From contig JBHLOI010000049.1 in NCBI GenBank assembly GCA_048940645.1, positions 1-23,862 on the forward strand: 23,862 bases of DNA, given 5' to 3'. Origin of the DNA: Promethearchaeota archaeon. Lineage in GTDB: Archaea; Asgardarchaeota; Lokiarchaeia; Sigyniarchaeales; SOKP01. This document shows positions 13,508 through 21,664 of this stretch, piece after piece. The notes beneath the pieces were generated by a model. The model was given only the letters and a program-made list of their open reading frames with translations. It was not told the origin of the DNA and searched no databases. Each line of letters opens with the position of its first letter. Positions within the stretch are counted from its first letter, which is position 1. Both the position numbers and the translations under genes were made by a program.

Positions 13508-14029
13508 TCAAAAAGTTTGTCTTTCTAAAATCCTTCTTGTTAATAAATTAAACGCTTCATGTACATTTTCTCCAGACTTACTTGAAACTTTTAGGTAATC
13601 AAATAGGTTAAATTCTTCCTGAAATGTTATTGCATAATCGTCATCTACCATTATATCGTCAAATAAATCATTTTTTGTGCCTAAAAATAAGATAGGGAGA
13701 TTTGGATTATTCTTTCGGCATATATTGACCCATTGTTCTAAATTCTCTAATGTTATGGGACGTGTTAGATCAAACATGAGAAGGGCTCCTTTTGCTCCTA
13801 ACACATAGCTCTCTAATAAAAATCGAAAACGCTCTTGGCCACCAAAATCCCATAATTGCAATGTGCAGTGCTGACCATCAAGTTCTGTCTCCTTAAGGAA
13901 AAATTCAACTCCTATCGTCATTTTTGTCTCTGCCGAAAATTTCCCCTCTACATAACGATGTAATAGAGTTGTTTTACCTACACCACCTTCTCCAGCTGTT
14001 AATATCTTTAAAATGAATTTTTTTGGCAT
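13508..14029 (-). CDS. Rab-like small GTPase (Ras superfamily), paralog A
   Basis: G1 GEGGVGKT, G2 TIGVEF, G3 WDFGGQERFR, G4 TKND, G5 SSK. No prenylation motif. Confidence 0.92.
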   Translation of the reverse strand: MPKKFILKILTAGEGGVGKTTLLHRYVEGKFSAETKMTIGVEFFLKETELDGQHCTLQLWDFGGQERFRFLLESYVLGAKGALLMFDLTRPITLENLEQWVNICRKNNPNLPILFLGTKNDLFDDIMVDDDYAITFQEEFNLFDYLKVSSKSGENVHEAFNLLTRRILERQTF

Positions 14030-17006: not shown

Positions 17007-17134
17007 ATTGATAATTTCAGTTGAACAGTCATTAGATATTATATTATGTTATTAAAGAACACTTAAAAAAATTATTTTTCTTCTGATAAAAATTGGAGAT
17101 ATTAGAGAGAATTATTTTAACCACAAAATTTTTT

Positions 17135-17267
17135 GCGTTTCTGGGTTCGGATGGGACCAGGTATTTTCCTGTTTCACCATGACCGTAGCCGTAGCCACAG
17201 TTTGAAAGTTCCCACAAATCGCAATTGCAGTACTATCTTCAACGCAAAACAGTTTAACTTCCAGCGC
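17135..17267 (-). other. Relaxed bulge-helix-bulge (BHB/BHL) RNA processing motif formed by the two flanks of the permuted 5S
   Basis: GCG (17267-17265) pairs with CGC (17137-17135); 3-nt bulge AAA (17140-17138); 4-bp helix CUGG (17264-17261) with CCAG (17144-17141); AAG (17260-17258) as the second bulge or loop. Confidence 0.75.
17139..17258 (-). rRNA. rrf: 5S rRNA, circularly permuted (canonical 3' half 17258-17194, UACG linker 17193-17190, canonical 5' half 17189-17139)
   Basis: The minus strand reads GUUAAACUGUUUUGCGUUGAAGAUAGUACUGCAAUUGCGAUUUGUGGGAACUUUCAAACUGUGGC-UACG-GCUACGGUCAUGGUGAAACAGGAAAAUACCUGGUCCCAUCCGAACCCAGAA. It contains the 5S hallmarks CCCAUCCGAAC (loop C), GUUAA (loop B) and AGUA/GAA (loop E). 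Helices I-V can be paired by hand. Length is 120 nt. Confidence 0.88.
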
Positions 17268-17338
17268 CGTGCGAAAAGCACTTAACTTTTGTGGTTAAAA
17301 ATACCAACTTCACCATTTCATAAGCTCAACTATTTTTT

Positions 17339-17367
17339 TTAATAAATGCTTTGCTTATATGGTTTTG
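17339..17367 (-). promoter_or_regulatory. Candidate BRE/TATA elements for the 5S precursor
   Basis: Minus strand CAAAACC-ATATAAG-CAAAGCA-TTTATTAA lies about 40-65 nt upstream of the terminal stem. Two overlapping candidates; weak in an AT-rich background. Confidence 0.3.
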
Positions 17368-17493: not shown

Positions 17494-19620
17494 TTATCTA
17501 ATAATGCTTTTGTGTTTTCTTAACCCTTTTAATATTACAAAAAATGAAATACCAACAAAAGCAATAATCATAATTAATACAACTATAAGCACATAATCCA
17601 TTAAAGGCTTTGGAATTGTAAATTTGAAATTTTCGTTATATAGGATATCTGAATTATTAGCATAATTTCTTATAAAAAATGCAAAGGAATAATCTCCTGG
17701 ATCATATCTATTAAGCTCATACTCTAAAGTTATTAGTTCTTGGTATTTGTCATTAGATATACGATAATAAGAGTAATCTTCGAAATTATTATTAGATAAT
17801 AATATAAAAACACTTTCAATGTCTGAATGATTATCAAATACGGTGATATTAAAACAAATATTATCTAAAATGGATGGAGATTTTGGAGACCAATTAACAC
17901 TGACAATTTGGGGTTTATGATCATTGGCTATTGTTGAGAAATTAAAATATGAAGGTATTAAATTATGACCCGTGATAATAACATCATAAGTTTCATTTGC
18001 TTGAGGTGGTAATCGAACATTGACTAAACCATTTTCATCTGCATAAATTGTTTGATATTTACCATCATCCGTTTCTAAATGTACTCTAGCAAAGGGTACT
18101 GTCTTATTGTTTGAATTTCTTATGGTAGTTGATATTAAATGACCTTCGGGATAAAAATTAGTAAATGGATTTTGAGCTTTTGTTGGTTTATTAGTATAGA
18201 TATCTAATTCAGGATCTCCAAGTAAACAATAAGTTAATATATTTTTTCGATGGCATTCGAAATATCTAGAGTAGGGTGAAAATATATCAGAATTCATATA
18301 TTCTACTTTAGATTCAAATAATGCTTTTCCTTGTTGGAAATATTTCTGTTCAAAGAATGTTTTCCAAAATAATTTAGCATTTGCGCGATTTAAATATTCT
18401 AAATTTGTATCATTTTCAGCATACCAAGTGACTCTAAGACCACCTATAGATCCCACAGTTCCACCATCTTCTCTTTTTATTAGAGTTTCTCCAATATTAT
18501 TATCATTTTTATCATAAGAAGAACTTGTACATGAAAACGCATAAAACAATGAAGGCATGTTTAAATTTTCACTTGTAGAAGCGTCTGTATTATCATAAAC
18601 AGTAGAAATACCCTCAGTAGCGAGCTTAAAGGGATTACCATGGCCAGCAAAAAAAACTGTTGAATAACCCAAATCAAAATGAGTATCAAAATTGTTGGAA
18701 TCTAAAATTGATTCATTATTGGGGGCTGGAGGGGATGTTGGATCAAAACTAGAAGTAGTTTGATGTAAATGAGTAAAGTTCATCTCTGATAACACATAAT
18801 TTGTCCAAATATATTGAGTTAATCGTGCTTCATCTTCAGCAGGGGAAGAGTCTGATATACCTCCTGCTAATAACATTCTATTCATCCAATTTCCAATATT
18901 AGGGGCAATTTCATATTTTAGAGTTTTATTTACCATTAATTCAAGTTCTGTAGCAGAATCAGCAGGCAATCGGCCAACATAAACTTCTGGACTCCATTCG
19001 ATTTCATCTCTGCCGTTTTTGTTGTATTCTGCCGATTCACCAAAAATGTTATCATTATCCTCATCCCAAGAACCACTTAAATCAGCATAATAAAAGTCAG
19101 TAGGTTTGTAATAATCATCCCAATTAAGATATTCACTTTCTCCCTCTCCTACTTTAATTACATCTGGATTGTAAACGTACCTAATAGGGATCAAACCTTC
19201 TTGGGCATCGCCAATTAACAGAATCCATTTGATATTTTCCCGTTCATAATAAGATTTTATCATATTTCGGATTCTTTCTGCATCATCCCTCCCAGAATAT
19301 TCTGAAAAATTGCTTAAAATTATAGTTCTTACTCCTTTATTGTTTTTCCATTCCACTAAGGGATTAATTGCATCGATAAAATCACTGTTATTTGGTGTTA
19401 TTACCAACATTTCAACTTTTGGTTCATACCAAATGTCATCATACATTTCAGGTAATTTAGATAAATCTATATTTGAAGAATTAGTAGATAATTTCAGATA
19501 ATTAACATTATCACTTTCAAAATCATTATTTCTATTATTATAACGAAAAGGAATAGATAGTAATAGAATTAAAGCAATAAAAGATAATTTACTAAATTTT
19601 TTCAGATTCAATTGCTTCAT
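17494..19620 (-). CDS. Peptidase C25 (gingipain) family cysteine protease, N-terminal signal/anchor and C-terminal TM helix
   Basis: LVEWKNNKG, ILLIGD, TDFYYADL, PEVYVGRLP, catalytic His (FAGHGN) and Cys (AFSCTS), YCLLGDPEL; hydrophobic termini. Confidence 0.9.
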   Translation of the reverse strand: MKQLNLKKFSKLSFIALILLLSIPFRYNNRNNDFESDNVNYLKLSTNSSNIDLSKLPEMYDDIWYEPKVEMLVITPNNSDFIDAINPLVEWKNNKGVRTIILSNFSEYSGRDDAERIRNMIKSYYERENIKWILLIGDAQEGLIPIRYVYNPDVIKVGEGESEYLNWDDYYKPTDFYYADLSGSWDEDNDNIFGESAEYNKNGRDEIEWSPEVYVGRLPADSATELELMVNKTLKYEIAPNIGNWMNRMLLAGGISDSSPAEDEARLTQYIWTNYVLSEMNFTHLHQTTSSFDPTSPPAPNNESILDSNNFDTHFDLGYSTVFFAGHGNPFKLATEGISTVYDNTDASTSENLNMPSLFYAFSCTSSSYDKNDNNIGETLIKREDGGTVGSIGGLRVTWYAENDTNLEYLNRANAKLFWKTFFEQKYFQQGKALFESKVEYMNSDIFSPYSRYFECHRKNILTYCLLGDPELDIYTNKPTKAQNPFTNFYPEGHLISTTIRNSNNKTVPFARVHLETDDGKYQTIYADENGLVNVRLPPQANETYDVIITGHNLIPSYFNFSTIANDHKPQIVSVNWSPKSPSILDNICFNITVFDNHSDIESVFILLSNNNFEDYSYYRISNDKYQELITLEYELNRYDPGDYSFAFFIRNYANNSDILYNENFKFTIPKPLMDYVLIVVLIMIIAFVGISFFVILKGLRKHKSIIR

Positions 19621-20110: not shown

Positions 20111-21664
20111 ATGACGCAAGATTTAGAAGATATTTCTGGAATAGGTAAAGCTACTGCTGAAAAAATGAGAGCAGCGGGGATAGACACAATTGAAAAATTA
20201 GCTTCAAGTAAACCTACAGATTTAACTAAGCTCAAAATTAAAGGAGTGGGAGAACCCACAGCAAATAAATATATAAATAACGCAAAAGAATTATTAAAAT
20301 CTAAAGAAAAAGATAAATCTGAACTTCCAAAGGAAACAGCTCCTAAAAAGGTCGGAAAAAAACCTACAAAAAAATTTTCAACTGAAAAGGCATCTAATAT
20401 AAAGGAACTGATAAAACAACAAGCAGAATGTAATATAGGGTTAGTAGGGCATGTGGATCACGGAAAAACAACTCTTGTTAAAACTTTTACGGGAGATTGG
20501 ACTGATAGGCACTCAGAGGAGCAGGAGAGGGGAATATCAATAAAGTTAGGCTATTCAAATGCTACAATTTTATATTGTCCTGAATGTGACGAGTATTTAA
20601 CTTATTATATGGCAGAAAAAGCTCGTAAAAAAGGTCAAGCCAAGTTGAGTTGTAGTAAATGTGGAGGGAATATAGAGTTCAGAAGAAATATCTCTTTTGT
20701 AGATGCTCCAGGACATGAAATTTTGATGGCTACAATGTTAAGTGGAGCATCATTAATGAATGGCGCTTGTCTATTAATTGCTGCTGATGAGATTTGCCCT
20801 CAACCTCAATCTCGAGAACATCTTGCTGCTTTAAATATAGCAGGAATTAAAAATATTATAATAGTTCAAAATAAAATTGATGCAGTTTCAAAAGAACAAG
20901 CTTTTGAGAATTATAAGCAGATAAAAAAGTTTATTAAAGGTACAATTGCAGAAAACGCTCCCATAATACCTATATCAGCTGTATTTGGTACTAATATCGA
21001 ATTAGTTGTAAGGGCTTTTGAAGAACTTATACCATCTCCAAAATTAAATGAAGATGAAGAATTTCAATTTTTAATAGCGAGATCTTTTGATATTAACAAA
21101 CCCGGAACCGATATTGAAAATTTAAAAGGTGGTGTAATTGGAGGTTCAGTTTTAAAAGGAAAAATAAATGTAGGAGAACAAATAGAAATCAAGCCAGGCA
21201 TACGAATAAAAAGCACTTATACCCCAATTAAGTCACAAGTAGTAAGTATAAGTCAAGGGACCAGCCTTTTAGATGAAGCTAAACCAGGCGGATTAATAGG
21301 ATTAAGAACTAAGCTAGATCCTACTTTAACTAAAGGAGATTCATTAATAGGTCATTTAGTCGGAAAGCCAAATACTTTACCGGAGGTTATTTCTGAAGTT
21401 GAATTAAAAGTCCACCTCCTTGAAAGAGTTATTGGTTCAGAAATGCAAATAAAAGTTACAGAGCTTAAACACAATGAAAAATTATTATTAGTTGTGGGTA
21501 CAGAAAAAACCGCTGGAACTATAACAAAAATTCTTAAAAATTCTTATATCTTACAATTAAATCCTCCAATTTGCATTCCTGAAGAATTTATATTTGCTAT
21601 ATCCAGAATAATAAATAGGCGATATAGATTAATTGGATATGGAGAATTAGTTAATTCTAAATGA
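20111..21664 (+). CDS. eif2g: Translation initiation factor aIF-2 gamma with N-terminal helix-hairpin-helix extension
   Basis: NIGLVGHVDHGKTT, DRHSEEQERGISIKLGY, zinc-binding CPEC...CSKC, FVDAPGHEILMATMLSGA, PQPQSREH, QNKID, ARSFDINKPG, RLIGYG. Confidence 0.95.
   Translation: MTQDLEDISGIGKATAEKMRAAGIDTIEKLASSKPTDLTKLKIKGVGEPTANKYINNAKELLKSKEKDKSELPKETAPKKVGKKPTKKFSTEKASNIKELIKQQAECNIGLVGHVDHGKTTLVKTFTGDWTDRHSEEQERGISIKLGYSNATILYCPECDEYLTYYMAEKARKKGQAKLSCSKCGGNIEFRRNISFVDAPGHEILMATMLSGASLMNGACLLIAADEICPQPQSREHLAALNIAGIKNIIIVQNKIDAVSKEQAFENYKQIKKFIKGTIAENAPIIPISAVFGTNIELVVRAFEELIPSPKLNEDEEFQFLIARSFDINKPGTDIENLKGGVIGGSVLKGKINVGEQIEIKPGIRIKSTYTPIKSQVVSISQGTSLLDEAKPGGLIGLRTKLDPTLTKGDSLIGHLVGKPNTLPEVISEVELKVHLLERVIGSEMQIKVTELKHNEKLLLVVGTEKTAGTITKILKNSYILQLNPPICIPEEFIFAISRIINRRYRLIGYGELVNSK

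Follow-up and report, generated by a model that had tools for sequence, protein, structure and literature searches.

Among described systems, the closest to the locus reported here is the signal recognition particle (SRP) RNA of Thermoproteus tenax and T. uzoniensis (Plagens et al. 2015, PMC4731332), in which the 3' part is encoded first, leader and trailer form a motif of the bulge-helix-bulge (BHB) type, a heterotetramer-type splicing endonuclease and RtcB have been proposed to excise and ligate the RNA, RNA reads cross the junction, and a functional loop is re-formed in the circle. In Cyanidioschyzon merolae, permuted transfer RNA (tRNA) genes (Soma et al. 2007; review, PMC3978253) likewise have a BHB motif formed by leader and trailer and pass through a circular RNA stage. 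Among archaeal ribosomal RNAs (rRNAs), circular pre-16S and pre-23S rRNAs and circular or permuted mature 23S rRNAs arise from a BHB motif in the processing stem that is cut by EndA, followed by ligation into a circle, and the circle or permuted form of 23S rRNA can enter the ribosome (PMC7758197, PMC12918454). In brown-algal mitochondria, a permuted 5S rRNA has helix I closed by a hairpin and its ends elsewhere (Valach et al. 2014, PMC4267664). According to PMC12918454 (2026), 5S rRNAs are not processed via circles in the organisms studied there, and the 5S circles noted at a low level in Sulfolobus did not undergo validation (PMC3326292). In the genome of a Promethearchaeota archaeon (assembly GCA_048940645.1), a circularly permuted 5S rRNA gene was found on the minus strand at 17139-17258 of a 23,862-nt stretch of contig JBHLOI010000049.1 (the window, to whose positions all locus coordinates refer). 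We put at roughly 85% the probability that this gene is matured by cutting at a BHB motif and ligation into a closed RNA of 120 nt.

Layout and identity of the permuted 5S rRNA gene

The gene runs from the 3' part of the 5S rRNA through a capped helix I to the 5' part; that is, the 3' part lies upstream of the 5' part and the native ends are linked in the DNA, as in the permuted gene of the Thermoproteus SRP RNA. The 3' part (17194-17258, minus strand), which shows covariation and aligns with linear 5S rRNAs once rejoined, comprises the loop B side of helix II, helices V and IV, and the 3' strand of helix I. A UACG tetraloop, read directly in the sequence (17190-17193, minus strand), caps helix I in place of the usual free 5S ends. 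The 5' part (17139-17189, minus strand), recognised by a partial Rfam match as well as by alignment, comprises the 5' strand of helix I, helix II, and helix III with loop C. These parts are enclosed by a terminal processing stem of 14 bp, the leader strand of which (17287-17300, minus strand) is a perfect complement of the trailer strand (17115-17128, minus strand); the stem is present in both the minimum free energy (MFE) and the centroid folds, and its core AACCAC/GUGGUU is conserved in relatives. Inside the stem, the order from 5' to 3' is a hairpin, GCG-CUGG-AAG, the 3' two-thirds of 5S, the UACG-capped helix I, the 5' third of 5S terminating in CCAG-AA at 17139, and A-CGC (17138-17135). 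An earlier reading of the sequence (the original prediction) had claimed this perfect stem and, within it, GCG-CUGG-AAG (17267-17258) facing CCAG-AAA-CGC (17144-17135); both were confirmed.

Neither the window nor the whole 3.83-Mb genome, which is 89.6% complete, yielded a 5S rRNA gene in an Rfam search at the gathering threshold. The sole Rfam 5S signal was a half-match at 17138-17163 (model positions 26-52, 21.4 bits, posterior probability 1.00), which lies below the RF00001 gathering threshold of 38 bits, as expected because the gene is permuted. Weak Rfam matches near the locus to SNORD24, mir-367 and snR83 were rejected as chance matches in the AT-rich leader, and a tRNA scan with ARAGORN alongside the Rfam scans found none. 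The permuted 5S core is present as a single copy in the genome. When the 120 nt are rejoined from 17258 to 17139, they read ...CCCAGAA+GUUAAAC..., which is the canonical sequence of helix III and loop B, between Rfam model positions 51 and 52, just as had been claimed for the ligated inner piece. The restored RNA aligns end to end (MAFFT) with the linear 5S rRNA of the sister family, and carries the conserved sequences of loop C/helix III and of loop E.

An alignment of 71 sequences (68 distinct restored sequences and 3 linear ones) gave a consensus with the usual three-arm 5S fold, in which 96.5% of cells were paired and 23 of the 31 pairs changed on both sides. In the genomic (permuted) arrangement, 96.7% of cells were paired, compared with 32-46% when partners were slid, and the covariation score was 0.466, compared with at most 0.10 when slid; the three-arm fold with helices I to V is thus kept by covariation. 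The capped helix I was 99.7% paired, with changes on both sides in three of its eight pairs. Its cap loops, examined in 127 loci, include UUCG (67), UUUG (21), UUAG (18) and UACG (9). The cap is a bare loop of 4 nt, mostly of the UNCG type and variable in sequence, and it has neither a conserved flanking spacer nor a second BHB motif.

The BHB motif, the rejoined RNA and the proposed maturation pathway

The BHB motif of the window is made up of a leader strand at 17258-17267 (minus strand; outer helix GCG 17267-17265, central helix CUGG 17264-17261, bulge AAG 17260-17258) and a trailer strand at 17135-17144 (minus strand; central helix CCAG 17144-17141, shared with helix III, whose 3' strand it forms, bulge AAA 17140-17138, outer helix CGC 17137-17135). 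Both a central helix of 4 bp with two 3-nt bulges on opposite strands and an outer helix (h) are present, and the layout is pseudo-symmetric, each strand consisting from 5' to 3' of a flank helix, a 4-nt central strand, a 3-nt bulge and the other flank. The rule that cleavage follows the second base of each bulge predicts cuts at 17259/17258 and 17139/17138, the same positions that the original prediction had obtained, and cutting there restores the 5S junction exactly. Shuffling of the leader and the trailer, 20 nt each, produced a BHB motif in the restoring register in 138 of 200,000 trials; the motif is more than chance.

To assess conservation of the motif, 5S homology alone was used to set the cut sites, regardless of pairing, in 123 loci that represent 68 distinct leader/trailer pairs. 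Ranking of BHB motifs by the length of the outer helix was rejected because it frequently picked spurious sites or the long terminal stem, and an early intron finder sometimes removed real 5S helices; the homology-guided choice was used in place of both. Over the 68 distinct pairs, the four central pairs were 97-100% paired and the first three outer pairs 96-100%, and all eight positions together were 95% paired, compared with 13-43% after sliding. At the outer pairs GC, CG, AU and UA replace one another, which are compensatory changes. The motif is conserved with covariation, for which the original prediction had proposed a check in relatives. Strict criteria were passed by 116 of 124 evaluable loci, and the remaining 8 had one mismatch each.

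Junction-spanning RNA, which the original prediction had named as its test, was found. About one third of the words sampled from a 301-nt query occurred in each of seven metatranscriptome runs, a fraction that corresponds to the 120-nt part, and contigs were compared from four runs (X1, X7, X2 and X4), each from a different study. The contigs of X1, X7 and X2 each contain the joint from 17258 to 17139, a step back of 120, without any mismatch and with 47-57 nt on whichever side is shorter; the X4 contig spans 17139-17261, and both of its loose ends spell the same join, again with 0 mismatches. All four contigs are 150 nt long (120 + 30), have ends that overlap by 30 nt and also cross the helix I cap. 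Such lengths and self-overlap are as expected from a closed 120-nt cycle in a k=31 graph, and a closed 120-nt cycle of k-mers fits a circle. A further contig of X1 matches a relative of the L082 type at both loose ends, differing from the window only at two expected bases across 17139-17170; judging from the match tables, it reads GGUC+CCAUCC across that relative's own, different break point, where only the register after base 2 fits. Together, the join seen in four studies and the unambiguous register of this contig place the cut after the second bulge base in RNA. Contigs of the four runs leave 17060-17136 and 17269-17360 uncovered, which, for contig data, says nothing about precursor levels. 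The joined 29-mer had no match among 241 million metagenome DNA records, and neither the joined 21-mer nor its 15-mer core was found in the genome. This absence of the joined form from genomic and metagenomic DNA argues that the locus is not an assembly artefact, against which the original prediction had also argued.

The same cut geometry was encountered in other layouts. In other genera of the family, the break lies in loop C, with a leader GCG-CUGG-AA/C-CAUCC... and a trailer ...CCGG-UC/A-CGC, the slash marking the cut (L049-L055, L031); in a neighbouring family it lies in loop B (L167); and four families outside the class share the break site of the window, with long perfect outer helices and the central helix CGUG/CACG. 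There are thus at least three break points among lineages, each with a leader/trailer BHB motif of its own. In addition, 34 loci of relatives give circles of 149-152 nt, each with an insertion of about 30 nt at one of four sites: loop C has two of these, helix IV has one, and the fourth is on the 3' side of helix IV (L004:1441-1810, L005, L018, L025, L053 and about 30 more loci). Every insertion contains a 4-bp helix of its own, along with a pair of 3-nt bulges and an inner stem that covaries, like the archaeal BHB introns of tRNA and 16S/23S rRNA genes, and the same cut rule removes them seamlessly. Coincidence of intron sites with the break points of relatives would fit migration of break points via tandem duplication, but none coincided in the loci seen. 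Counting introns as well as break points, the geometry is reused at a minimum of seven sites, and the register is in every case the one that restores 5S. That a single geometric rule restores 5S rRNA in all of these layouts is the strongest argument at the level of sequence for a splicing endonuclease. The proposal that the 5S rRNA is handled like an intron is supported by this shared rule, by the join in RNA and by the covariation of the motif.

The genome encodes RtcB and two EndA-domain paralogues of 201 and 205 amino acids. The first paralogue is closest to chain 3p1z_B (E = 4.9e-34), which we take for the catalytic subunit in the EndA heterotetramer of Aeropyrum pernix. In a pairwise alignment, the second lacks a His where the first has one, at what is presumably the position of the catalytic His of EndA, and would therefore be a structural subunit. 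EndA and RtcB, both encoded in the genome, are the likely enzymes for excision and ligation of the 5S rRNA. A loop that gives EndA a broad substrate range is conserved in the EndAs of TACK (Thaumarchaeota, Aigarchaeota, Crenarchaeota and Korarchaeota) and Asgard archaea (Kaneta et al., PMC5829648), and such broad specificity would fit the relaxed inner helix of the 5S motif.

In the pathway that we propose, a stand-alone transcript of about 250 nt would carry the 5S rRNA in permuted order, and its flanks would pair into the 14-bp stem with the BHB motif inside. The archaeal splicing endonuclease would cut after the second base of each bulge (17259/17258 and 17139/17138), and RtcB would join both ends of the enclosed piece. 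The predicted product (17139-17258, minus strand, with the back-join from 17258 to 17139 found in the RNA contigs) would be a covalently closed RNA of 120 nt, with the helix III/loop B junction restored and helix I still capped by its tetraloop. Since CCAG is shared by the BHB motif and helix III, the precursor and mature folds are mutually exclusive, and the RNA would have to refold after ligation. The product is probably a true covalent circle.

Several observations weigh against this pathway. The inner helix (h') is poor, with only GUU/AAC available, and G17258 can pair with C17145, which leaves a leader bulge of 2 nt; the caveat of the original prediction that the inner helix is imperfect was correct, and the motif appears to be a relaxed (hBH-like) one. 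Free-energy folding gave an MFE of -63.2 kcal/mol with the trailer paired elsewhere and -58.3 kcal/mol when the fold was constrained to contain the BHB motif, so that the BHB fold lies 4.9 kcal/mol above the predicted minimum, and it competes with helix III; thermodynamics alone neither finds nor excludes the motif. The RNA evidence comes from assembled metatranscriptome contigs and not from raw reads; such contigs carry neither ends nor abundances and do not prove covalent closure. At 150 nt, the contigs may also be just as long as the reads, in which case the template wraps round all the same. GAA precedes both cuts in the window organism, which makes the join there ambiguous by 3 bases. The weakness of the inner helix and the failure of the BHB motif to appear in the MFE fold could also be taken to mean that enzymes other than EndA and RtcB excise and rejoin the RNA, the BHB-like shape being incidental to a stem that is cut by other RNases. 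We regard this as very improbable, as an exact 4-bp helix with 3-nt bulges is kept across 68 distinct sequences and recurs in the restoring register at seven or more sites, and as both EndA and RtcB are encoded. Least credible of all is a scrambled pseudogene, or an artefact of assembly, at this locus, with the working 5S gene elsewhere and unassembled. The incompleteness of the genome (89.6%) and the frequent absence of rRNA genes from metagenome-assembled genomes (MAGs) would allow for it, but the layout is single-copy in 113 of 126 genomes of the family, closed contigs included, compensatory covariation is strong, the locus is expressed in joined form, the only canonical 5S matches of the family adjoin bacterial 23S rRNA on contaminant contigs, and the junction was found in no DNA.

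A further question is whether the circle produced by BHB cutting and ligation is the final form of the RNA. It might be only an intermediate, an unknown nuclease opening the helix I cap to give an ordinary linear 5S rRNA, as happens to the permuted tRNAs of C. merolae. Circular intermediates of pre-16S and pre-23S rRNA offer a further precedent, and the contigs cannot show ends or relative amounts; nevertheless, we consider this unlikely, because the cap is a variable 4-nt loop, mostly of the UNCG type, with no conserved spacer and no second BHB motif, and because the RNA contigs that bear the join also cross the cap. The same two observations favour the ring as the final form, and on balance we lean towards the circle itself, not a re-opened molecule, being the 5S rRNA of the ribosome. 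The wider statement that the working ribosomes of most Loki-type archaea, and of several Asgard lineages besides, have a covalently closed 120-nt ring as their 5S rRNA has slightly better than even odds in our estimation, and such a ring would be the first endless 5S rRNA. If so, a product without ends would leave the gene free to be re-cut anywhere, which would explain the three or more break points and the four intron sites.

Distribution among Asgard archaea and genomic setting

BLAST searches with the locus found homologues only within the genus, and a covariance model of the permuted core was required for the remainder. By this model, 113 of 126 genomes in the family of the window organism had a match, with one copy each in nearly all, and the matches include closed contigs. 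None of 13 genomes of the sister family had a match, and three other families of the class had scattered matches. The sister family, in which single-contig genomes of 4.4 and 6.0 Mb occur, has linear, often tandem 5S genes, which passed the Rfam 5S search in 12 of 14 genomes. In a phylum-wide sample, full-length permuted matches were found in four further families and confirmed by eye, and many Asgard families had no canonical 5S rRNA above the threshold. A hallmark pattern for the capped helix I identified 88 loci, nearly all of them in MAGs named Promethearchaeota or Promethearchaeia (Loki-type Asgard archaea).

Two canonical 5S matches in the family of the window organism, L044 (G015:C263) and L032 (G085:C68), were rejected as contaminant contigs, each adjoining a bacterial-type 23S rRNA gene; one of these two 23S rRNA genes carries group I introns. 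A locus filed under a Nanopelagicaceae bacterium MAG (L119, DATKTW010000142.1) is a Loki-type permuted 5S gene identical to the common type of the genus, and probably lies on a mis-binned contig.

As standard tools miss the permuted gene, Asgard MAGs seem to lack 5S rRNA and fail the "high-quality" criteria that require it. For annotation, the covariance model of the permuted core recovers genes that these tools overlook, which amounts in this family to one copy per genome in the 113 genomes with a match.

The 5S unit stands alone, its neighbours being a hypothetical open reading frame and a gene for a C25 (gingipain-type) peptidase of 708 amino acids (17494-19620, minus strand), which lies directly upstream. 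A putative TATA-like box of the stand-alone transcription unit was noted at 17353-17360 (minus strand), where a block ...CCATATAAG/AT... is kept at an equal upstream distance in all homologues of the same genus, and a T-run at 17065-17071 (minus strand) is a likely archaeal terminator, as a T-run followed by AA is kept at the same place in homologues. Between the terminal stem and the BHB motif there is a small leader hairpin, GUGC/GCAC (17269-17281, minus strand), which shows compensatory changes in relatives, such as GUAGC/GCUAC. Elsewhere in the window, there are genes for a Ras-family small GTPase, typical of Asgard genomes (13508-14029, minus strand), and for an aIF-2 gamma-like GTPase (GTP_EFTU and eIF2_C domains; 20111-21664, plus strand) with an additional N-terminal helix-hairpin-helix domain (HHH_5, E = 4.7e-11).

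Comparison with known systems

The 5S rRNA is universal, and its gene has long been treated as constant and easily found. No report of a permuted, circular or intron-bearing archaeal 5S gene was found in a literature search that covered full text, with subscription journals outside its scope. The pathway proposed here would extend BHB splicing to a core ribosomal RNA, making a universal part of the ribosome a product of splicing, and would provide a natural test of whether a ribosome works with an endless 5S rRNA. The locus is also a case study of how RNA genes may be permuted and interrupted once a system for cutting and joining exists.

The differences from the described systems lie in the RNA concerned, in its ends and in the kind of evidence. 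The brown-algal mitochondrial 5S rRNA is linear and permuted in its final form, without rejoining (PMC4267664), whereas the ends of the Asgard 5S rRNA are rejoined. Archaeal 16S and 23S rRNA genes are collinear with their products, and it is their natural ends that are joined (PMC7758197, PMC12918454); the Asgard 5S gene is itself permuted, and ligation makes an internal junction. In C. merolae, RNase P and tRNase Z open the tRNA circles again within a spacer (PMC3978253), whereas the native ends of the Asgard 5S rRNA are linked by a bare tetraloop with no spacer. For the Thermoproteus SRP RNA (PMC4731332), cleavage and circularity were shown experimentally, whereas the Asgard 5S is known from sequence and assembled RNA contigs. 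The Asgard case concerns an rRNA inside the ribosome, and whole families rather than one genus; its break points vary by lineage, and it has extra BHB introns. The proposed mechanism matches that of the permuted Thermoproteus SRP RNA, and in part those of the permuted tRNAs and of the circular 16S and 23S rRNAs.
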